64,000 nt of DNA from Flavobacteriales bacterium (GCA_021739695.1 JAIPBM010000023.1:1156-65155), one strand, 5' to 3'; positions 6,719 to 64,000 are shown, numbered from the stretch's first letter. The notes: a model not told the origin generated them from the letters alone. A program made the numbers and translations.

Positions 6719-7302
6719 ACTTCCTTGTGACGGAAGCAATCTACCGTATGGTCGTTTACCATACCAGTTGCCTGCATGTGAGCGTAGATAACTGTTGGCC
6801 CAACGAATTTGAATCCGCGTTTCTTGAGGGCTTTACTGATCTGTTCGGCCAATTCAGTTTTGGCAGGAATGTCTTTTAGCGAAGCCAAGGAATTCTGCAT
6901 CGGCTTCCCATCTACAAAATCCCAAATGTATTTGCTGAACGAACCGAATTCCTTTTGAATTTGAATGAAAGCCTGCGCATTTGAAACAGCTGCGCGAATC
7001 TTGGCTCCATTTCGGATAATACCAGCGTCAGCCATCAGGCTTTCAAGCTTAGCATCATCGTATGTGGCCACTTTTTTTACGTCAAAATGGTCGAATGCCG
7101 CACGGAAATTCTCGCGCTTGCGAAGCACTGTGATCCAACTCAATCCGGCTTGGAATGTCTCTAATATCAGAAACTCGAAAAGCCGCTGTTCATCAAACAG
7201 CGGCACTCCCCATTCTTCATCGTGATAAGAGATGTAAAGCGGATCATCAGAAACCCAGCCGCAACGTTTTTTTGCTTGTGGATGATGATTCATATCGTTC
7301 AA
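6706..7302 (-). CDS. tag: DNA-3-methyladenine glycosylase I
   Basis: CGWVSDDPLYISYHDEEWGVPLFDEQRLFEFLILETFQAGLSW is the canonical Tag N-terminus. Confidence 0.9.
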   Translation of the reverse strand: MNDMNHHPQAKKRCGWVSDDPLYISYHDEEWGVPLFDEQRLFEFLILETFQAGLSWITVLRKRENFRAAFDHFDVKKVATYDDAKLESLMADAGIIRNGAKIRAAVSNAQAFIQIQKEFGSFSKYIWDFVDGKPMQNSLASLKDIPAKTELAEQISKALKKRGFKFVGPTVIYAHMQATGMVNDHTVDCFRHKEVQTL

Positions 7303-12040: not shown

Positions 12041-14077
<2,037 letters not shown>

Positions 14078-14089
14078 TTTGGCGGCTGA

Positions 14090-15553
14090 ATGCTGAATTA
14101 TCTTAAAACCCACAAACTCGCATGGCTGGTCACAGCGGTGTATGGCGTGGTTTTCTGTCTGATCTCGCTGATCAATCACTACAATTTCAGAACCTACGGG
14201 CTCGATCTGGGCATTTACACCCATGGGATCTATAGCTATTCTCACCTGCATTGGCATCAATTCACGCTTGGATTGGAAGGTGAATCATTCAATCATTTGG
14301 GGAATCATTTCTCACCGATTGTCGCGCTGCTTTCGCCCTTCTATTACCTTTTCGGGACCTACACGCTTCTGATTCTTCAGATTGCTGCCATTGTCTTTGG
14401 CGGGTGGGGCATTTATCTATTTGCGAAGGAACGACTGGAAGGATTTCAGCCAGAGTTGGTCATGGTGCTATTCTTCAGCATGTGGGGCATTTATTCGGCC
14501 TTGGCTTACGATTGGCATGCGAACGTGATGGCCGCCATGTTCGTGCCATGGTTCATCCTGTTCTACGAACGAAAAGATTGGAAAAAAGCCATGATGATGT
14601 TCGTCCTAGTGCTCATTTGCAAAGAAAACATGGCTGTTTGGATGGCTGCGATCTTAGCTGGATTGGCCGTTCGTGATTTCTTCCTAAAACCGAATCAGAC
14701 CAACTGGCTTTTCCTTGGTTCATTACTTGGTTCAGCTATAGTTTATTTTCTCGTTGTTCAGGCGGTCATCATGCCTGCACTGAACACGGCAGGTGTTTCT
14801 GATCATCTCGGTAATTACAGCCATTTGGGTAACGGACCGGTTGGAGTAATCAAGACCATGCTTGGTAAGCCACGGCACATTTTCTATCTGATGTTTGAGA
14901 GTTTGCAGAACGATCCTTTAACCTTCATGCTCAAATCACAGTTGCATTTCATGGTATTGGTTTCTGGTGGATTTGCTTTGATCTATCGTCCACATTACCT
15001 CATCACGCTAGCGCCCATTTACGCGCAGAAATTGTTGTCGTCAAATCCAGCGCATTGGGGCGTTTATTCTCAATATTCGATTGAGTTCGCGCCCATCATT
15101 GCATTGGCTTTTGTTGAATGGATGCAGCATTTTCCTTTCGAAAAGTGGAAGACGACTTTGCTTATTGGTACGATTGCCACGGCAACGTTTTTCAATTGGC
15201 ATCCAACACGACCGAATACGGGTTTTTATCAATCGGCACATTACCAATCGGGATTGAACTCAGAAGCCATTTACAATGCGTTGGAATTAATTCCTGCCGA
15301 TGCGGTTGTTTCGGCAAGTAATGTGATTGTGCCGCATGTTGCTGATCGGGAAAAAATCTATTTGTTTCCAGTTGTAAAGGATGCGGATTATCTGGCCATT
15401 CTAACTCACGGCCGCGACCTTTATCCAGTTGATAGTCTCGAATTTCCGCAGAAAATGGTGGAACTTAGAAGCGATTCCTTGAACGAGATCATTTATGACG
15501 AGAATGATTTCCTCATCATCAAACGGAAAGTTATTTCCGAAGGAATGAGATAA
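14090..15553 (+). CDS. polytopic membrane protein, DUF2079 family
   Basis: 487 aa with >10 TM helices. N-terminal sequence resembles DUF2079 proteins. Confidence 0.55.
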   Translation: MLNYLKTHKLAWLVTAVYGVVFCLISLINHYNFRTYGLDLGIYTHGIYSYSHLHWHQFTLGLEGESFNHLGNHFSPIVALLSPFYYLFGTYTLLILQIAAIVFGGWGIYLFAKERLEGFQPELVMVLFFSMWGIYSALAYDWHANVMAAMFVPWFILFYERKDWKKAMMMFVLVLICKENMAVWMAAILAGLAVRDFFLKPNQTNWLFLGSLLGSAIVYFLVVQAVIMPALNTAGVSDHLGNYSHLGNGPVGVIKTMLGKPRHIFYLMFESLQNDPLTFMLKSQLHFMVLVSGGFALIYRPHYLITLAPIYAQKLLSSNPAHWGVYSQYSIEFAPIIALAFVEWMQHFPFEKWKTTLLIGTIATATFFNWHPTRPNTGFYQSAHYQSGLNSEAIYNALELIPADAVVSASNVIVPHVADREKIYLFPVVKDADYLAILTHGRDLYPVDSLEFPQKMVELRSDSLNEIIYDENDFLIIKRKVISEGMR

Positions 15554-55549: not shown

Positions 55550-56272
55550 TTGAGCCGAATCAAAAAACAGAACATCATGGAGATCATCGTCAAATCACTG
55601 CTATTTCTACACGTTTCATTCGGATTTACAAGCCTGCTGCTTTTCTGGCTTCCTGTCTTTATGAAGAAAGGAGGGAAGGGCCATCGTGTGGTTGGGAAAC
55701 TCTATGTATTAGCCATGTGGGTGGTGGTTACATCGGCTGCGCTGCTCTGCATCAAGAATGTCATCATCGGGAAGTATTTCATGGCGGTTTTTCTAGGATT
55801 CATCTCGCTTATCACGGCCAATCCACTTTGGTACGGTATGGCCATTCTGAAGCCAAGGGTGTACGAAACAAGCGCATTCCATTGGAAACGTACGGCATTT
55901 GATGGTCTCATCGTTTTGGCAGGCGCCTTGATGCTTGTTTACGGTATCATCCTCGAAGGAAAAGATTCAGCGGTGCTTATGCTCATTTTCGGTTGCTTGG
56001 GGCTTACAGGCATTCCATCCTTCATTAAGAATCTGAAAGGTCCGCGCGAAAAGGAAGACCGGATCCGTCTTCACATGATCGGTATGCTTACCAGTGGAAT
56101 TGCTGCTTACACAGCCTTTTTCGTGTTTGGTGGCTATACATGGATGAGCAAATTGCTTCCTGGTATGTGGGGCATTCTTCCGTGGACAGCACCTGGATTG
56201 ATCGGTGCCATTGGCATTAACTATGGCGTGAAGTATTTTCGAAAAAAGGGAATGATTTCCGAGCAGCATTAG
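55550..56272 (+). CDS. hypothetical polytopic membrane protein
   Basis: 6 predicted TM helices; no motif. Confidence 0.45.
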   Translation: MSRIKKQNIMEIIVKSLLFLHVSFGFTSLLLFWLPVFMKKGGKGHRVVGKLYVLAMWVVVTSAALLCIKNVIIGKYFMAVFLGFISLITANPLWYGMAILKPRVYETSAFHWKRTAFDGLIVLAGALMLVYGIILEGKDSAVLMLIFGCLGLTGIPSFIKNLKGPREKEDRIRLHMIGMLTSGIAAYTAFFVFGGYTWMSKLLPGMWGILPWTAPGLIGAIGINYGVKYFRKKGMISEQH

Positions 56273-57708
56273 CACGCTGCGATCTCGGAAAGGTGCGTGA
56301 GCTCGGTTTGGTGTAGGATGGGTTGATCTTGGTTCTTTCCCAGTATCAGCACAGAGAATTCTTCCGTTCGGTCGATATTGAAGATCTTGTTGCAATTGAT
56401 AAGGTCGTAGCGCGCAACTACCCGTTTCCGATGCAATAGATGATGCCAAAGGCGCTTGTTCACAGGGTCTGAAAGCGTAGAACCTTTCAAGATCAGACCG
56501 ACCGAGCTCCGTTCCGTACCAAGACTGTCGCAGAGCTCGGTGAAAAGAACGTTGGTCTGCAAGCCGCCCATACAGGAATGGTCAAACCGTTCATCGTTGT
56601 AGACATTCTCCATGGCCACGTCAACAGCTTCATCATGCATCAGCAGCCAACGGTACAATTCGGGATGCGATTCTTCCAGTATTTCCAATGCTGTGTCCAG
56701 CTCCTCTTCATCGTCTATTTCTGCCAAACGCGGACAAAGAAGATGCAGGTAGTGGCTCAGGTCAAAACCGATGCTTCCCCATGGAGGATTGCCAATGATC
56801 ACATCACAGCGTTGAATTTGATCTGGTCTTAAAGCAAGCCCGTTGTGATAATAGAAGTTAGGTGAATGATCAAAGGCATCAGCTTCGTCATCAGGCCAAA
56901 TGAGGGGATTTCCGTTGACGAAACGTTTACTCAGTTCAGGGTAAAGCGCAAGTCCATCTACTGCTTCCAACACACATATTCGTGCAATTTCCAGCGATAT
57001 GGAATCTGCTTCGATGGCATGAAAGTTCAGCACCATCTTCTTTAGGTCCTCATGTGAAAGGCAAAGATGCTTCTTGAAATATCGGATAAGGGCAAGGAAA
57101 AAACTTCCCGTTCCGCAAGAATGGTCTGCGTAGGAGGAGTTCCGTAGAAGTTCTGTGACGCGTTCCAGATCGGCTTCTGAGCTTTGCAACTTGGAAAACT
57201 GCTCTATTCCCAGGTTCTTCAAAATGTAATTGTCGATGGTGAGTTGCACCAAAGTATCGGCAAGGAGTGTGGGCGTGTAAAACGAACCAATGGAGTTCAA
57301 ATGCTCCTTGTCGTCCATAATAACGCCATCCCGTACAGGGAATTCGAGCAGCAGCATTGATTCGTAGAGGTCCGACAGTTCCACCCGTGCTAGGTGCTGT
57401 GACTTAAACCAATCGAGGAAAGTGGTAAGCGCTTGCTTTTCGGCCTTACTCAGCAGATTGAAGCTGGCTGTGAAAGTATTTTCTCCAGCCAAACTGCCTT
57501 TAAGTGATTGGAACACATCGTTCAGAGCTAATGAATCAGGTCCGTTCAGATTGTGTTCGGCAACTATTCCAAGGACAGTCGATTGCATGCGATGAATGCT
57601 TGCAAAATAGGCACTCGGCTGGCAAATGGCCCCATCTTCCACCAGTATTTCCTGCTTAAGTGCAGTTAAAATGGCGTTGGAAGTATGGTGACAGATAGCT
57701 TGTAGCAT
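56269..57708 (-). CDS. N6-adenine-specific DNA methyltransferase (gamma-class, HsdM/Eco57I-like), solitary
   Basis: Motif X (GSFYTP), motif I (DHSCGTGSFF), motif IV (VIIGNPPWG). No adjacent specificity or restriction subunit. Confidence 0.7.
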   Translation of the reverse strand: MLQAICHHTSNAILTALKQEILVEDGAICQPSAYFASIHRMQSTVLGIVAEHNLNGPDSLALNDVFQSLKGSLAGENTFTASFNLLSKAEKQALTTFLDWFKSQHLARVELSDLYESMLLLEFPVRDGVIMDDKEHLNSIGSFYTPTLLADTLVQLTIDNYILKNLGIEQFSKLQSSEADLERVTELLRNSSYADHSCGTGSFFLALIRYFKKHLCLSHEDLKKMVLNFHAIEADSISLEIARICVLEAVDGLALYPELSKRFVNGNPLIWPDDEADAFDHSPNFYYHNGLALRPDQIQRCDVIIGNPPWGSIGFDLSHYLHLLCPRLAEIDDEEELDTALEILEESHPELYRWLLMHDEAVDVAMENVYNDERFDHSCMGGLQTNVLFTELCDSLGTERSSVGLILKGSTLSDPVNKRLWHHLLHRKRVVARYDLINCNKIFNIDRTEEFSVLILGKNQDQPILHQTELTHLSEIAAC

Positions 57709-59006: not shown

Positions 59007-59420
59007 TTAGTTTCCTATTTCAATTTGTTGTTCTACAAAGTTCTTGTAGGCTTTCGTTTTGAAGGTAAACCAATCTTGTCGGTACGCTGATGCATCAATC
59101 AGAATCTTGAAGTTCTGAAACGGTTTTTTTTCCGAAAGTTTGCCTAAAATTCTTTGCTTAAAGTTGGAGTCCGTCAATGAATGGGCGAAATTCTCCAATA
59201 CCTGGAATCCTTGATTTGAATCCATTTTTACAAATGACTGATAGTTTTCCACGTCATTTTCAATTTTGTCAATGACGTCTTGCCAAGGTTCTGGGTCGAA
59301 GTAAGGGTCGTCTGGGTCAGGGTGAGATTCAATGGTGCCAGTTGGTCGATGATAGTAGCACCTCATTCCGCAATCGAGTAGGTCGGAAATTTCTGCGATT
59401 TGTTCCTCTGTCAACTTCAT
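59007..59420 (-). CDS. small acidic cytoplasmic hypothetical protein
   Basis: ORF only; 137 aa; immediately downstream of the lipoprotein gene. Confidence 0.4.
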   Translation of the reverse strand: MKLTEEQIAEISDLLDCGMRCYYHRPTGTIESHPDPDDPYFDPEPWQDVIDKIENDVENYQSFVKMDSNQGFQVLENFAHSLTDSNFKQRILGKLSEKKPFQNFKILIDASAYRQDWFTFKTKAYKNFVEQQIEIGN

Positions 59421-59425
59421 TTGGC

Positions 59426-60001
59426 TTAAAAATAGCCAAAAGTTATTGTGTTAAGATCAGTTATAAACTGATCGTGTTTCATTCCACACAAGTCATCCTT
59501 CGGAAGACTTGCGCGAGCGGGGGTTCGTGATTTATTTTCTTTTTCAAGGTTAATGTCGTCAAGCAAGCTACTCATTAGGTCAAAGCCTTCGTCATTAAGC
59601 CCTCCCCATTTCGTCAGCGAATTGTAAGGTTGGAATTCCCATTGATTATAACCGCATCTGATTTCAATAATTCCTCTGACCGTTTCATCTTTTAAAACCA
59701 GTATCAACGCGTTTGTGTGGAATGTCCCACAGTCACCGTTAGAATAATAAGCGCTATCTGATATGAGTTGTTGGAGTTTCGCTTTCTGCGAATCTGTCAG
59801 GATAAACTCCCCTTCAGAACCAACGTAATCCAATGGATCTACGTCCATTGTCTCAATGGTCGGAAAGTTGTCAAAATTTAACTGAACGTAGTGAACTGAG
59901 TAATCCTTGTCAGAAAGTTGTGTCCAATCAAAATCCAGAGACTTGTTTCGAGAGGAGCAAGCACTTACAAATAGAAGTAAGCTTAATAGAATGTGTCTCA
60001 T
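59426..60001 (-). CDS. hypothetical lipoprotein
   Basis: Lipobox FVSACSS; 191 aa. Confidence 0.45.
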   Translation of the reverse strand: MRHILLSLLLFVSACSSRNKSLDFDWTQLSDKDYSVHYVQLNFDNFPTIETMDVDPLDYVGSEGEFILTDSQKAKLQQLISDSAYYSNGDCGTFHTNALILVLKDETVRGIIEIRCGYNQWEFQPYNSLTKWGGLNDEGFDLMSSLLDDINLEKENKSRTPARASLPKDDLCGMKHDQFITDLNTITFGYF

Positions 60002-60015
60002 TTCGTCATGACGCC

Positions 60016-60139
60016 CAACGGTTTCCGCTATGAAAATAGGGCTTTAACTCCTTCGACCTTTCAGCCCGATGCCGAACTTGGTAGAAACCACTAAGGCTTG
60101 CGTGCTTGTCGTCACGCCCTATTTACATAGCAGTTGTTG
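60016..60139 (-). repeat. attC-like imperfect palindromic element, variant B (same termini as the 60872/62467/63211 copies, different centre)
   Basis: 5' CCAACGGTTTCCGCTATGAAAATAGGGC ... GCCCTATTTACATAGCAGTTGTTGTG 3'. The termini are inverted repeats of each other. Contains the stop codon of ORF 60112..60873. Confidence 0.5.
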
Positions 60140-60873
60140 TGTGCTGGCATTTTCATTTTTTCGTTCGTCTGTTCTGTAATTCGTCTATTTCTTGATTTAA
60201 TAAACTCCATTACTCGGCTTTTGTAAACCAAATACTCGTCAATGACAGCAAAGGCTGGTTTTGATTTAAAGTTGTCAAACGGCAGATAGAACTTGATGTT
60301 TTGGTTTTCGTCAATAAGGTCATCAAGCAAGAAAAATTGAACATATCCTTCAAAGTTGTCAAACAGATTGAAGAAGCTTTCGTACCTCAAGAAGGTGTCG
60401 TAAAGGGGGCTTTCTTGTCCCAAATAGAATAAGCGAATACACTCTAATGTAAGGTCAAATCTGTCGTCAATGAAGCTATTTACTCCTCTTGCTTGATTGA
60501 TGGTGAATTTGTTGTCAATCTTGTTTTTCGGAAATACGGTGTATGCCCCGATTGTGCTTCCTGTATCAAAAAGCTCGTCAACCTCATTTGGGATTTGCTT
60601 TGTAAGCCAATGTTTCCGTTTCTGGTTTCTGTATGAGTGAGTTATTGCGTCACTACCCAAGATAAATTCTCCTAAAGATGACTTGTGATATAGGTAGGTA
60701 CCTTGTCTATTGTCGGTTAATTCGAAATGCTGTCCGCTTGGCAAAGGTTTACTCCATAGGATTTTGTGGTATCTCCTCAATGTCGGACTTGTACTGTCTG
60801 GGTCACCACCTCTTGCGTCAGAGTAAAAATTGAAGTCTATGTCGATTTGCGTTGTCATTTTTTGCTTGCACAC
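60112..60873 (-). CDS. hypothetical protein (cassette-like ORF; probable ATG start at 60858)
   Basis: 253-aa ORF, no recognisable domain. The stop codon lies inside the downstream palindromic element. Confidence 0.45.
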   Translation of the reverse strand: MCKQKMTTQIDIDFNFYSDARGGDPDSTSPTLRRYHKILWSKPLPSGQHFELTDNRQGTYLYHKSSLGEFILGSDAITHSYRNQKRKHWLTKQIPNEVDELFDTGSTIGAYTVFPKNKIDNKFTINQARGVNSFIDDRFDLTLECIRLFYLGQESPLYDTFLRYESFFNLFDNFEGYVQFFLLDDLIDENQNIKFYLPFDNFKSKPAFAVIDEYLVYKSRVMEFIKSRNRRITEQTNEKMKMPAHNNCYVNRA

Positions 60874-60998
60874 AACGTTTGCCGCTAAAGATAATGCGTT
60901 AGAAACTGCCGTCCTTTCGCCATGCGCAGAGAGCGCAGAACGAAATTGAGACTGACTGACGTACTGTCGCGAGCATTAGGTTTAGTGGTTGTTGGCAA
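60872..60998 (-). repeat. attC-like imperfect palindromic element, variant A copy 1 (~127 bp)
   Basis: About 90% identical to copies at 62467..62589 and 63211..63335. Termini CAACGTTTGCCGCTAAAG ... TTTAGTGGTTGTTGGCAA form an imperfect inverted repeat with asymmetric spacers. Contains the stop codon of ORF 60982..62469. Confidence 0.55.
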
Positions 60999-62469
60999 AT
61001 CGTTGTTTCTCCCAGATATAAACACCACCAGCTACCTTGTCGTCATTAATTCGTTCGAAACGAGAGCCGATAATTGCTCTGTCGTTTTCCATATCTACTG
61101 AAAATCCGAACTTGAGCCAACTTCTTTCCTGCACTGAGGTAAGTTTTTCAAGTTCTTTCCATCTGCCATTGGGAGTCAACTGAAAAACATAGGCGGCTCC
61201 GTGATAAAGTGCTTCTGCTGGGTCAGTGTTTTCCAATGCATCTGCAAATGCACCAACGATTAGCAAGCTGTCGTGAGCGCTTAAACACATTCCGAATTTA
61301 TCGTCAGCACCACGGTCAGAAGCAGTAATTTCCTGAGAAACTTTCCACATGCCATCCGCATCTTTCTCATACACAAAGACAGAACCAGCCCCAGCCTTTC
61401 TTTCTTCATGCTGCTCCCACGTTTCAACCCTCACGGCTTCTTCTCTGAATTTCTCTTTCGTAATATTCATTGATTCTAAAGTAGAAGGGTCGTTGGGAAT
61501 CAGTTCGATTGCCATCTGATAACCATCATCTGTCTCGGTCATTATGCGCATCACAAAAACCGAATCTGTTGCTGGCAGTGTATCTATATCGAATAGCTTA
61601 TAGCTGGTTTCTCCTTCGGCACCAACAAAGAGATAGTCGTCTGTCACGCAAACAGAACTTGCAAAGTGCCTTACACTGCTATTAGGACTGACCAGTTTCT
61701 GCTTGAAAACAGCTTTCAGACTCTCATCTAGATCATAGAGGTACGCACTATTGCTCTGTGCTGCGGTAATCAGGACGTGGCGGTCAGACATGGAAATCGA
61801 ATAACCGAAATTTTTAACGCCTTCAGGCGGCTGTATTTGGTCTCTCTGAATCCACTTGCCATTATCAGTCAACTGATAAATGAACACCGTACCTGAGGTT
61901 GAAGGGTTTTCACCGCGCTTGTACATGTGGGCAGAAACGATGAGTTTACCATTCTGCAACATGAGATTCTTTCCGAAATTATCGCTTTGGGATGGAGAAG
62001 GAATGGTAAGCGTCTGTGTTAATTTCCAAATTCCATCAGCGCCTTTCTCGTACATGAATACAGCCCCTTCCCTGATTCTATGCTCACCGTCATCATCCAC
62101 TTGATCGAAGCCGTTGGCTCCAACCGCTAAATGGTTTCCGTTGATGCTCACCGCTGTTCCGAACCAATCATTTGCTTTAGGGTAGGGTGCGGTTAGCTGT
62201 TGTGATTCCTTCCATGTTCCGGTAGTTGTTCGTTGAAAAACATAAACCGCACCTGCGTTTACAATCGTGTCCTTGTTAACAGCAATTTGATAATGGGGTG
62301 CGCCAGACACGGCTTGATCTTTCGAAATACTGGTAGACCAACCTATTACCTCACCTTCTTGTCTGTTGGTGTCGTCCAATTTTTGAAATGTTCCTTGGGC
62401 ATGGCAGGAGCCGAGATAGAGGAAGAATAAAATAAAGTGTGATAAAAGCTTCATTACAATGTTTGCCAA
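60982..62469 (-). CDS. secreted FG-GAP/integrin-alpha-like beta-propeller repeat protein (probable ATG start at 62454)
   Basis: Signal peptide (LLSHFILFFLYLGSCHAQG); repeated GAVYVF...W...FG.AVSI.GN.L.VGA units. Confidence 0.6.
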   Translation of the reverse strand: MANIVMKLLSHFILFFLYLGSCHAQGTFQKLDDTNRQEGEVIGWSTSISKDQAVSGAPHYQIAVNKDTIVNAGAVYVFQRTTTGTWKESQQLTAPYPKANDWFGTAVSINGNHLAVGANGFDQVDDDGEHRIREGAVFMYEKGADGIWKLTQTLTIPSPSQSDNFGKNLMLQNGKLIVSAHMYKRGENPSTSGTVFIYQLTDNGKWIQRDQIQPPEGVKNFGYSISMSDRHVLITAAQSNSAYLYDLDESLKAVFKQKLVSPNSSVRHFASSVCVTDDYLFVGAEGETSYKLFDIDTLPATDSVFVMRIMTETDDGYQMAIELIPNDPSTLESMNITKEKFREEAVRVETWEQHEERKAGAGSVFVYEKDADGMWKVSQEITASDRGADDKFGMCLSAHDSLLIVGAFADALENTDPAEALYHGAAYVFQLTPNGRWKELEKLTSVQERSWLKFGFSVDMENDRAIIGSRFERINDDKVAGGVYIWEKQRFANNH

Positions 62470-62589
62470 CGGTTTCCGCTAAAGATAATGCGTTAGAAAC
62501 TGCCGTCCTTTCGCCATGCACGGACAGCGCAGAACGAAACTGAGACTGACTGACGTACGGTCGCACGCATTAGATTTTAGCGGTTGTTG
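62467..62589 (-). repeat. attC-like imperfect palindromic element, variant A copy 2
   Basis: CAACGGTTTCCGCTAAAGATAATGCGT ... ACGCATTAGATTTTAGCGGTTGTTGGCAA. Contains the stop codon of ORF 62577..63197 and ends ~12 bp before the next ORF's ATG. Confidence 0.55.
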
Positions 62590-63197
62590 GCAATTGTAAT
62601 TTCTTTTCCGTCCCCGACTTCCAAAACAAGAAGAACCGCGATAATGTCAGGAATGATTAGAAAGCCGTACATGGTCGTGCTTAGTTCACCGTACCAATAA
62701 GGAGCTGCAAACATTAGAACAGCGCTGTAAACAAACATTAAAACAAACGCTGCTATCGAACCTTTCGCCCATTGTTTCATACGGATAAAGCGAGAATTTA
62801 AGTCGTCCGATTTTGCCCTAAGAATTAAAACCACCATAGCAATTCCTAAGAAAGCCGAAAGAATTTCAACGGCAGTCGAGCCAACCTGAGGGAGAAAGTC
62901 CGAAAACCTTGAACCAATCCCCAAAAGCTGGTAGATGATTTCGACAAACAAATTAAGTTTTGTGACTAGCACCAATTTGTCCAAGCGGTTATAAGCAAAG
63001 TAGTCTATAAAGAACTTATAGATGTAAACAGTACAAAGGATACTACCAATCGTGATGAACGACCATTGTACATCGTCAGGCTTTCCAGTTTTGATATATA
63101 GAAATTCAAGTGCGATGAATATTGTATTCACAATACTGTAACCAAAAGCAAAAAGCAAAAGGTTTCTCCTTTCTGATGTGATTGAAAATGTGTCCAT
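62577..63197 (-). CDS. hypothetical polytopic membrane protein (cassette-like ORF)
   Basis: 206 aa, ~6 TM helices. C-terminal residues ...IANNR and the stop codon are encoded by the repeat. Confidence 0.45.
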   Translation of the reverse strand: MDTFSITSERRNLLLFAFGYSIVNTIFIALEFLYIKTGKPDDVQWSFITIGSILCTVYIYKFFIDYFAYNRLDKLVLVTKLNLFVEIIYQLLGIGSRFSDFLPQVGSTAVEILSAFLGIAMVVLILRAKSDDLNSRFIRMKQWAKGSIAAFVLMFVYSAVLMFAAPYWYGELSTTMYGFLIIPDIIAVLLVLEVGDGKEITIANNR

Positions 63198-63210
63198 TTT
63201 TTATAATTGC

Positions 63211-63335
63211 CAACGGTTGCCGCTAAAGATAATGCGTTAGAAACTGCCGTCCTTTCGCCATGCACGGACAGCGCAGAACGAAACTGAGACTGACTGACGT
63301 ACGGTCGCACGCATTAGGTTTAGTGGTTGTTGGGG
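63211..63335 (-). repeat. attC-like imperfect palindromic element, variant A copy 3
   Basis: Near-identical to copy 2 as far as GTTGTTGG, then diverges (GGTTAG vs CAA), as expected for a recombination crossover point. Confidence 0.55.
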
Positions 63336-63375
63336 TTAGTTTTTTATTTCCAAGTTTCTATTGACCTTGAATAAC

Positions 63376-63885
63376 TCACAAGATTTCAGGGCGTTGTTTC
63401 ACAGGGTTGAACGGTTGAATTGTCTTATGAATCGGTACATCTTTAAGGCTTTCAATTTCCTTTTCAACAAAGGGAGTTACCAGATTTGTGATAATAATGT
63501 CAGGCCTGTTGTTTTTCAGATGAACCTGCGCAAAATGGTAAGTTGACATACTCAAGAAATGAATGTGCGACCGAGCTTTAATGGCGGCAGACATATTTAA
63601 GGTAATTCGGTCTATCTCATTCGCATAGATAAGTGTCTCATTTCCGGTTGACGTCCTTACCTGTATTGCTCTGGAACTTATACTGAATTCAACCCCTTTG
63701 TTTAATTCATAGTATTGCCAATGAAGGTAAATTGTCGGTGCTGCATCCAATATCGCTATCACACCTAGACTCAATGCAATGCCAACATCAAATCCTGAAA
63801 GAATAATGACTACCGCAAGGATTACGTTATGAAATATGAACACTCCTAGAGCTTCAAACTGATTTTTCTTCGTAATCCTAAGCAT
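63376..63885 (-). CDS. hypothetical membrane-anchored protein (2 N-terminal TM + ~100-aa soluble domain)
   Basis: ORF only; possible bacterial PH-like domain. Confidence 0.4.
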   Translation of the reverse strand: MLRITKKNQFEALGVFIFHNVILAVVIILSGFDVGIALSLGVIAILDAAPTIYLHWQYYELNKGVEFSISSRAIQVRTSTGNETLIYANEIDRITLNMSAAIKARSHIHFLSMSTYHFAQVHLKNNRPDIIITNLVTPFVEKEIESLKDVPIHKTIQPFNPVKQRPEIL

Positions 63886-63953
63886 TCCTAAAACCCAATC
63901 CTATCTTCTAATAAACAAGTTCCATTTAGTCAAAAACATTGATTAAGAAACCC

Positions 63954-64000
63954 AATTTTCAAGATGCGCCAAAATTAACCCCAACGGGTTACTGCTATGA
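63954..64000 (-). repeat. start of a further attC-like element (variant-B-like terminus), truncated by window end
   Basis: CCCCAACGGGTTACTGCTATGA resembles the 60016 terminus CCCAACGGTTTCCGCTATGA. Confidence 0.35.

Follow-up and report, generated by a model that had tools for sequence, protein, structure and literature searches.

Integrons are defined and detected by their integrase, IntI. In sedentary chromosomal integrons such as the Vibrio cholerae superintegron, with its Vibrio cholerae repeat (VCR) sites, promoterless cassettes stand in tandem and in one orientation; the recombination sites between them are imperfect palindromes of about 120 nt with R''/L''...L'/R' boxes and AAC/GTT triplets, the flank of R'' can pair with the first bases of the cassette, crossover takes place at G|TT, attI lies beside the recombinase gene, and a very high cassette diversity goes together with families of sites that are similar within a lineage. 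Here we analysed a stretch of 64,000 nucleotides from Flavobacteriales bacterium (GCA_021739695.1, JAIPBM010000023.1:1156-65155; this whole stretch is called the window hereafter), at whose end open reading frames (ORFs) alternate with attC-like repeats and which, taken together with related arrays in other genomes, has all of these features. Positions 60016-64000 are very probably the integrase-distal end of a chromosomal integron-like cassette array in a Flavobacteriales genome. An earlier note made from the sequence alone had proposed such an array with attC-like sites, and this core of it is supported by the boundary signature of the cassettes, by the adjacency of an integrase gene to related arrays elsewhere and by the turnover of cassettes between two of these arrays.

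The likeness has its limits. Unlike in the Vibrio superintegron, the recombinase of the related loci has no I2 insertion, carries an extra N-terminal domain and is co-oriented with the cassettes, with attI at the 3' end of its gene, and the sites lack extrahelical bases in the L boxes, their R-L spacers measuring 2-3 nt versus 4-6 nt and being longer on the arm of the AAC cleaved on the bottom strand. In canonical attC sites two or three bases of L'' are extrahelical, and the arm that holds them lies opposite that with the cleaved AAC (PMC5027507); in VchIntIA the I2 helix docks these bases, and single-stranded cassette recombination is held to have become possible through the I2 insertion (PMC7790495). 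The missing extrahelical bases of our sites fit the missing I2 helix. As for the phylum, general reviews list integrons for Bacteroidota (PMC8618304, PMC9668308), the IntegronFinder 2.0 survey lists for Bacteroidetes nothing but In0 elements and a single complete integron, that of Salinibacter ruber (PMC9024848), and a preprint counts Bacteroidota among the clades previously found without integrons (10.1101/2024.07.02.601686).

Repeat elements, cassettes and their boundaries in the window

Between 60.0 and 64.0 kb the window holds four complete imperfect palindromes of about 122-124 nt and the edge of a fifth, with four minus-strand ORFs between them. With the conserved CAAC and the conserved GTTG taken as their ends, the complete elements, all on the minus strand, span 60016-60139 (r1, 124 nt), 60873-60994 (r2, 122 nt), 62467-62589 (r3, 123 nt, with a folding z of about -3.6 on both strands) and 63211-63332 (r4, 122 nt, reading CAAC-aa-CCACTAAA...TTTAGCGG-caacc-GTTG on the minus strand). 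The fifth (r5, 63982-64000, minus strand) has its R' box (GTTG, equal to plus-strand CAAC 63982-63985) and its spacer inside the window, along with the beginning of an L' box of r1 type; the earlier note had let this copy begin at 63954, about 28 nt ahead of the conserved CAAC. Elements r2 to r4 are 85-97% identical to one another, and r1, the integrase-distal and last site of the array, belongs to a different core family that has the termini and stem architecture of r2-r4 in common with them and an unrelated centre.

The four palindromes of about 125 bp behind minus-strand ORFs that had been noticed at the outset were recovered by measurement of their spans, by blastn and by a structure-based detector, whose pattern begins with CAAC and ends with GTTR and encloses an 8-nt L box and its complement, the spacer being short on the CAAC side and longer on the GTTR side. 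Applied to 128 kb (both strands), the detector returned the four elements, all on the minus strand, and one chance match. The same note had named the occurrence of the repeat at many non-arrayed sites as a finding that would speak against an array; within the window, blastn gave no copy in the other 59 kb. An Rfam scan of 56-64 kb yielded chance-level matches only, Rfam having no attC family.

The ORF listing agrees with the first description in that every ORF between the elements lies on the minus strand. With boundaries placed for cassette A at the G|TT of the r5 and r4 R' boxes, four minus-strand cassettes can be delimited. Cassette A (63214-63984, 771 bp) consists of an ORF for a 169-aa membrane-like protein without family match (63376-63885) and its own attC, r4. 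Cassette B (62470-63213, 744 bp) consists of an ORF for a 206-aa hydrophobic protein (62577-63197) and r3, the start codon lying 13 nt past the R' of r4 and the final codons and stop lying inside r3, with a 13-nt overlap. Cassette C (60876-62469, 1594 bp) encodes a 490-aa secreted FG-GAP repeat protein (60982-62454; FG-GAP_2, E=3e-42) and cassette D (60019-60875, 857 bp) a 248/253-aa DUF6994 protein (60112-60858; PF22507, E=5e-91). Of the product labels given earlier, FG-GAP thus stands, the 253-aa protein can now be named as DUF6994, and the 'PH-like' and '6-TM' proteins (TM, transmembrane) have no Pfam match; PADLOC and a relaxed Pfam search on the window's cassette proteins gave nothing besides FG-GAP_2 and DUF6994. 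The 5' untranslated region, from GTTG to the start codon, is 12-14 nt long in three of the window's cassettes, and three of the four ORFs extend 13-28 nt into their own attC, with the TAA or TAG in the L'' box as their stop codon. Stops at the conserved CTAA/CTAT(G) of L'' are seen in the window at 60112-60139, 60982-60994 and 62577-62589 and likewise at the ORF ends of two related contigs (L013 and L017), and the C-terminal tails ...ANNR, ...ANNH and ...PNNR, encoded by GCC AAC AAC CRC TAA, recur in attC-terminated ORFs.

The boundaries of these units carry a signature that reaches across the ORFs: the five bases after GTTG pair with the five before the CAAC of the next downstream site, on the other side of the ORF, and not with bases of the same element. 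The junctions of the window read GGGTT/AACCC (r5 to r4), GCAAT/ATTGC (r4 to r3), GCAAA/TTTGC (r3 to r2) and TGTGC/GCACA (r2 to r1), and all four match at six of six positions. Over 12 arrays the match is perfect (6/6 positions) at 32 of 39 junctions, compared with means of 2.5/6 for non-cognate pairs and 2.8/6 for pairs from the same element, and none of 100000 permutations attained the observed total. Rare TAAC/GTTA variants co-vary across cassettes, and the exchange point therefore lies 5' of the fourth base of GTTR. Complementarity across the ORF is what would follow if ORF and downstream site circularise as one unit by recombination at G|TT, in the manner of integron cassettes. The G/TT-type crossover postulated in the earlier note agrees with this, but it was placed at the wrong end: it belongs to the end of each element with the lower coordinate (R', which reads GTTG on the minus strand), not to the plus-strand GTTGTTGG end.

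A dispersed repeat, a miniature inverted-repeat transposable element (MITE) or a terminator would not produce such complementarity across ORFs. That the palindromes are repetitive extragenic palindromic (REP) sequences, bacterial interspersed mosaic elements (BIMEs), MITE-like elements or terminator hairpins that accumulated between co-oriented genes could be argued from their being intergenic, imperfect, uniform in length and present in many genomes. Such elements should occur as single copies dispersed through the intergenic regions of the genome in both orientations, MITEs with target-site duplications, and neither in the window nor in the related stretches was this the case: the copies occur only in arrays and in one orientation relative to the ORFs, target-site duplications are absent, the flanks are complementary across ORFs, the ORFs extend into the elements, and, as described below, the arrays begin at a recombinase gene and their gene content turns over in whole GTT-bounded units. 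We consider this explanation barely credible.

Architecture and folding of the sites

On the plus strand the termini of the elements read CAAC-5 nt-CCGCTA...TAGYRG-2 nt-GTTG. On the ORF (minus) strand the order is x5-CAAC (R''), 2 nt (AA) and L'' (CCRCTAAA or CTGCTATG), then, behind a centre of variable sequence, L' (TTTAGCGG or CATAGCGG), an AAACC-like spacer of 5 nt and GTTG-x5 (R'), which is the imperfect inverted repeat of attC, with AAC/GTT in R''/R', an L''/L' pair and a variable centre. The R box matches the consensus RYYYAAC/GTTRRRY only in part. Site lengths in the window and the other genomes range between 55 and 166 nt and are mostly 121-125 nt; canonical attC sites are 57-141 nt long. 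We aligned 33 full-length elements from the window and other genomes, which represent at least six unrelated core families, and in these YAAC, CTA, TAG and CGTTR are invariant or nearly so. In all element families the spacers are unequal, the ORF strand having 2-3 nt between R'' and L'' and 4-6 nt between L' and R'. The unequal spacers from which the earlier note had expected extrahelical bases are therefore real, but the unpaired asymmetry is that of the R-L spacer and does not consist of extrahelical bases within the L box, where we found none that are conserved, the L-box stems having symmetric mismatches or being fully paired.

RNAalifold returned no structure for the MAFFT alignment of the 33 elements, in which the unrelated cores were mis-registered, and stem covariation was counted on a hand-registered outer-stem structure. 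In the outer stems 89.4% of the cells are paired, against at most 36.5% with slid partners, and changes on both sides of a stem amount to 74 cells, against 23 in shuffled data, with none of 500 shuffles attaining the observed value. Complementarity of R'' to the cassette start and covariation of the L stems would be selected only if the site folds, and folding as a single strand or cruciform is for this reason favoured. Tyrosine recombinases cleave at the junction of arm and spacer, on the strand where the arm is 5' of the spacer. With the crossover at R' of the ORF strand, the cleaved strand should therefore be the bottom one, at CAA|C, as in integrons. The sites would thus most likely act as a folded bottom strand, and the mechanism that we favour is that of integrons, in which a folded site recombines with a double-stranded attI.

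It might be argued instead that the sites are double-stranded, like those of Xer at dif or pdif, the L'-spacer-R' segment being a conventional core and the palindrome incidental or serving another role. The recombinase of the related arrays, which is closest to XerA and has no I2 helix, held necessary for single-strand recombination (PMC7790495), lends itself to this explanation, as do unremarkable folding energies. Against it, R'' is kept complementary to bases that come to lie beside R' only once the cassette has circularised, and covariation of the L''/L' stems extends over unrelated families; double-stranded recombination at R' alone would select neither. G.T wobbles are, moreover, three times as frequent on the bottom strand as on the top strand (33 and 10, many of the counted elements being related), which is the direction reported for attC (PMC5027507). 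Sites of about 28 bp in alternating orientation, as in Xer/dif or pdif systems, were not what we found, all sites having one orientation in each array, in contrast to alternating pdif sites. Recombination at double-stranded sites consequently seems to us very improbable.

Recombinase genes and cassette turnover in related arrays

Among GTDB representative genomes, 16 stretches contain a match to a 24-mer taken from the r2-r4 core, and 15 of these come from Flavobacteriales or Bacteroidota metagenome-assembled genomes (MAGs). The remaining one, 4.6 kb long and binned as 'uncultured Klebsiella sp.' (L012, CAZSYV010000174.1), is a contig that holds a small array with the Flavobacteriales-type attC family and whose label is probably a binning error. 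In the related stretches r1-type, r2-type and further core types stand together in co-oriented arrays, the r1 core family recurring in the arrays of L008, L010, L013, L016 and L018, and the window's r2-r4 family is 88-97% identical to a full-length copy in L004 and 73-100% identical to the longer copies in L017. The ORFs between the elements are unrelated to those of the window and to one another, and a search for cassettes shared between arrays found none except in the pair L102/L103.

With IntI1 serving solely as a tblastn probe, we identified a 417-aa tyrosine recombinase in L004 and the 3' fragment of a homologue in L017, both encoded on the same strand as the cassettes and a short way upstream of the array. 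The L004 recombinase has numerous homologues, and we examined the contigs of P0005 (74% identity; L018), P0010 (66%; L019), P0027 (64%; L020), P0059 (52%; L101) and P0090 (46%; L102 and L103), along with that of a TARA relative (37%; L027) among the metagenome matches listed. In all nine loci that retain the 3' end of the recombinase gene (L004, L017 with its truncated gene, L018, L019, L020, L101, L102, L103 and L027) a GTTR-x5 site lies 24-54 nt past the stop codon, in the form (hairpin or TAGC)-4 to 5 nt-GTTR-x5, and is followed by same-strand ORFs separated by attC-like elements. The end of the first cassette is in all nine the exact complement (x5-YAAC) of the flank of this attI-like site, as in the pairs GTTGGCGTG / CACGCCAAC (L018), GTTGGCAAAC / GTTTGCCAAC (L019), GTTGGCGTT / AACGCCAAC (L020), GTTGTGTAAC / GTTACACAAC (L004) and GTTGCCAGCA / TGCTGGCAAC (L027). 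The related loci thus have an insertion site adjoining the integrase gene, although it lies 3' of the gene and co-oriented with it, unlike in classical integrons.

Pfam assigned Phage_int_SAM_4 and Phage_integrase to the array-associated recombinase. Its best NCBIfam family is NF040815 (XerA/'integron integrase'; 231.5 bits, cutoff 220), and the scores for the integron integrase family TIGR02249 (224 bits in two stretches, cutoff 265), XerD (181 bits, cutoff 329.6) and XerC (176 bits, cutoff 335.15) lie below the respective cutoffs. Compared with PDB sequences, the L004 protein is most similar to archaeal XerA (4a8e, 5hxy), and VchIntIA (2a3v) aligns with it in two pieces, residues 183-247 of VchIntIA (65 residues), which are the IntI-specific insertion with the I2 helix, standing opposite only 22. 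The AlphaFold model of P0005 (mean predicted local distance difference test (pLDDT) 86.5) begins with an alpha/beta N-terminal domain of 75 residues, which a disordered linker joins to core-binding and catalytic domains of the ordinary kind; the stretch from the beta-hairpin to the HxxR helix contains no additional helix, and Foldseek places XerA first and VchIntIA next. The N-terminal domain (P0005 residues 1-75, L018:10001-10225; beta-beta-alpha-beta-beta-alpha-beta, pLDDT >95) is conserved across the array-associated family, with the sequence pattern TVxFxxExHR...KAWVDYSAI, and has no Pfam match; it may be an arm-type or attI-binding domain. The recombinase is thus Xer/IntI-like, without an I2 helix and with an N-terminal domain of its own. 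The integron reading of the earlier note therefore holds for the organisation of the cassette array but does not extend to a canonical IntI, since the recombinases of the related arrays, when examined for the additional domain specific to IntI, proved to lack it.

An ordinary integron, with a canonical IntI bearing I2 and a divergent attI beyond 64000 and with the Xer-like recombinase elsewhere being incidental, would account for the AAC/GTT triplets, the layout of R and L boxes, the range of lengths and the cassette signature that our sites have in common with attC, and the window's own integrase is unseen. We nevertheless regard it as highly improbable. The I2-less recombinase directly abuts the first cassette in nine of nine array starts, with an attI flank matching the R'' of that cassette, and the L004 and L017 arrays use the attC family of the window's r2-r4; no canonical IntI was found adjoining any of these arrays, and the L box has no conserved extrahelical bases.

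Cassette turnover could be followed in L102 (a Salibacteraceae MAG from NCBI) and L103 (an assembly from ENA), which encode an identical 408-aa recombinase. The two are 99.75% identical through integrase and attI up to GTTA and then carry different cassettes: L102 has one, with a GerE-family gene and a gene for a 202-aa protein, and L103 has three, with GmrSD, with an S1/Schlafen-AlbA_2 protein, and with a helix-turn-helix (HTH) protein, two DNA methylases and an NgoFVII-type restriction enzyme. They rejoin at GTTATGCAC, identity resuming at CGTTATGCAC, which is the R' ahead of a shared esterase cassette. Gain and loss of cassettes at GTT, which the earlier note had put forward as a check, is accordingly seen, in this homologous system and not at the window's locus. 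The shared esterase cassette (L102:13309-14074, L103:10799-11564) is 94.3% identical, as against 99.75% for the integrase region, and from these identities it may have been acquired separately or exchanged.

Several further observations were made in the related arrays. Some of their cassettes hold two to four genes, and defence-type genes occupy integrase-proximal cassettes in L103 (1613-10641) and in L018 (11302-13480; an EcoRI-type methylase and a GmrSD_N/HNH protein), so that these arrays may be a reservoir of defence genes. In the attI of L102 (11228-11265), equal to that of L103 (1565-1600), a tandem direct repeat, GTCTATTT GTCTATTT, stands just before AC-AATT-GTTA and recalls the integrase-binding repeats DR1 and DR2 of attI1. 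The L102 array ends beside a tRNA-Gln gene on the opposite strand (L102:16872-16944). An IS110-family element (DEDD_Tnp_IS110; IS, insertion sequence) interrupts the first attC of L101 (L101:11789-13215) and an IS1182-like element that of L004, a partial second copy of its end lying in another site (L004:4030-5800, 6752-6870); these insertions recall the IS1111-attC group, which targets the attC sites of integrons. The -7 promoter element of Bacteroidetes is TAnnTTTG. A similar motif, TATTTTTG/TATATTTG, is found about 60 nt before the integrase stop in L004, L017, L018 and L020, where it also encodes a conserved R-I-F, and another, TATCTTTA, some 33 nt ahead of the next start codon, where it forms part of the L' arm of r2-r4 (window 63231, 62487 and 60893, minus strand). 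As motifs in the sequence, those in the integrase 3' end and in the L' arm could be cassette promoters.

Extent of the array and its place among known systems

Past the last site, at 59007-60001, two co-oriented minus-strand genes encode a lipoprotein-like protein of 191 aa and an acidic protein of 137 aa. No element follows them, as had been observed before, and neither an attC-like element nor a sequence complementary to the R' flank of r1 (GTTGGGCG) was found near 59007-60001. Because it has neither a bounding site nor a complementary R'', the pair is ruled out as a terminal cassette, and 59007-60001 is flanking chromosome rather than a bounded cassette. An independent Logan contig (L001) is identical to the window over these positions. 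Also just outside the array, a 479-aa minus-strand ORF (56269-57708) has an IIGNPPWG motif, and no Pfam match is recorded for it in the matching Logan contig. This motif is typical of N6-adenine DNA methyltransferases.

Placing these results together, one unit of the array would be a promoterless-looking minus-strand ORF with an imperfect palindrome of about 122 nt, and such cassettes would be excised and inserted by site-specific recombination at G|TT within the R' core, so that the five bases behind GTTG would travel with the downstream ORF and pair with the R'' of that ORF in the circular cassette. To judge from the related loci, the enzyme would be an Xer/IntI-like tyrosine recombinase of about 390-420 aa, encoded upstream of the array on the same strand, and the attI-like site 24-54 nt past its stop codon would be the site of insertion. 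This recombinase would catalyse the recombination of the cassettes. The polarity of the array makes r1 the distal site and would put the window's own integrase beyond 64000, on the minus strand.

Several points weigh against this interpretation. The 64-kb window contains no member of this recombinase family, in agreement with the earlier remark that no integrase is visible, and what connects window and recombinase is the homology of its attC families to arrays in other genomes. For two of the window's cassette proteins no exact-protein match is on record, and the only contig that matches the window, a 6.7-kb Logan contig reached through the flanking enoyl-CoA hydratase, ends in r2. Seven of the 39 junctions are imperfect and three are poor, with 1-4 of 6 matches (L017:2623-3471, 3306 to 2623; L020:13637-15276, 13637 to 15243; L010:5956-6988); the poor ones may be fused or decayed units, deletions or the result of recombination at secondary sites. 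The folding energies of single elements are modestly better than those of shuffled sequences (z -0.4 to -3.7), and the stability of top and bottom strands does not differ significantly (p=0.12). Finally, most of the more distant recombinase relatives (32-48% identity) among the metagenome matches listed have no obvious array; these matches included canonical IntI-like and IS91-partner recombinases, L027 being the informative exception.

When compared with described systems, the related loci share with Treponema integrons an integrase transcribed towards the array (PMC4889954) and with archaeal integrons an attI just downstream of the integrase gene (PMC9668308). The integrases of both are, however, reported to keep the IntI additional domain (PMC9668308), whereas here 22 residues stand in place of the 65 of VchIntIA. 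The window's array resembles a cluster of attC sites that has no integrase (CALIN) in having at least four sites and no integrase, and the related arrays differ from a CALIN in abutting a recombinase gene. As this recombinase has no IntI C-terminal signature, IntegronFinder would probably label complete elements as CALIN or miss them. With the Xer systems (archaeal XerA, XerC/D; dif, pdif and integrative mobile elements exploiting Xer, IMEX) the recombinase shares the absence of I2, and its core is nearest to XerA by sequence and predicted fold; those systems act on double-stranded dif-like sites of about 28 bp, whereas here co-varying palindromes of 55-166 nt form ordered arrays that bear a cassette signature, and the recombinase, whose gene stands at the head of the array, has an N-terminal domain specific to its family. 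The system works like an integron, but because both the IntI insertion and extrahelical bases were looked for and were absent, it stands outside integrons in the strict sense. In a classification of tyrosine recombinases the insertion is described as 'not fully conserved' in the integron-like subgroup (PMC8138268), and I2-less relatives have for this reason already been seen as sequences. In the searchable full text, outside which most subscription journals lie, we found no description of Flavobacteriales cassette arrays served by an I2-less enzyme.

Whether these arrays form a distinct class of integrons can be answered only tentatively, and we rate the chances at somewhat under even: such a class, in Flavobacteriales and related marine Bacteroidota (TARA), would be characterised by an I2-less XerA-like recombinase with its own N-terminal domain, an attI behind the stop codon and folded sites marked by an uneven R-L spacer. 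Either it would be a relative that predates I2 or the integron would have been reinvented independently, and IntI-based detection would not see it. If this is true, a large environmental phylum has a cassette pool that current tools have overlooked, and its arrays would offer a natural test of the need for I2 and extrahelical bases in attC-type recombination and could be set beside integrons when their origin from Xer-like ancestors is considered.

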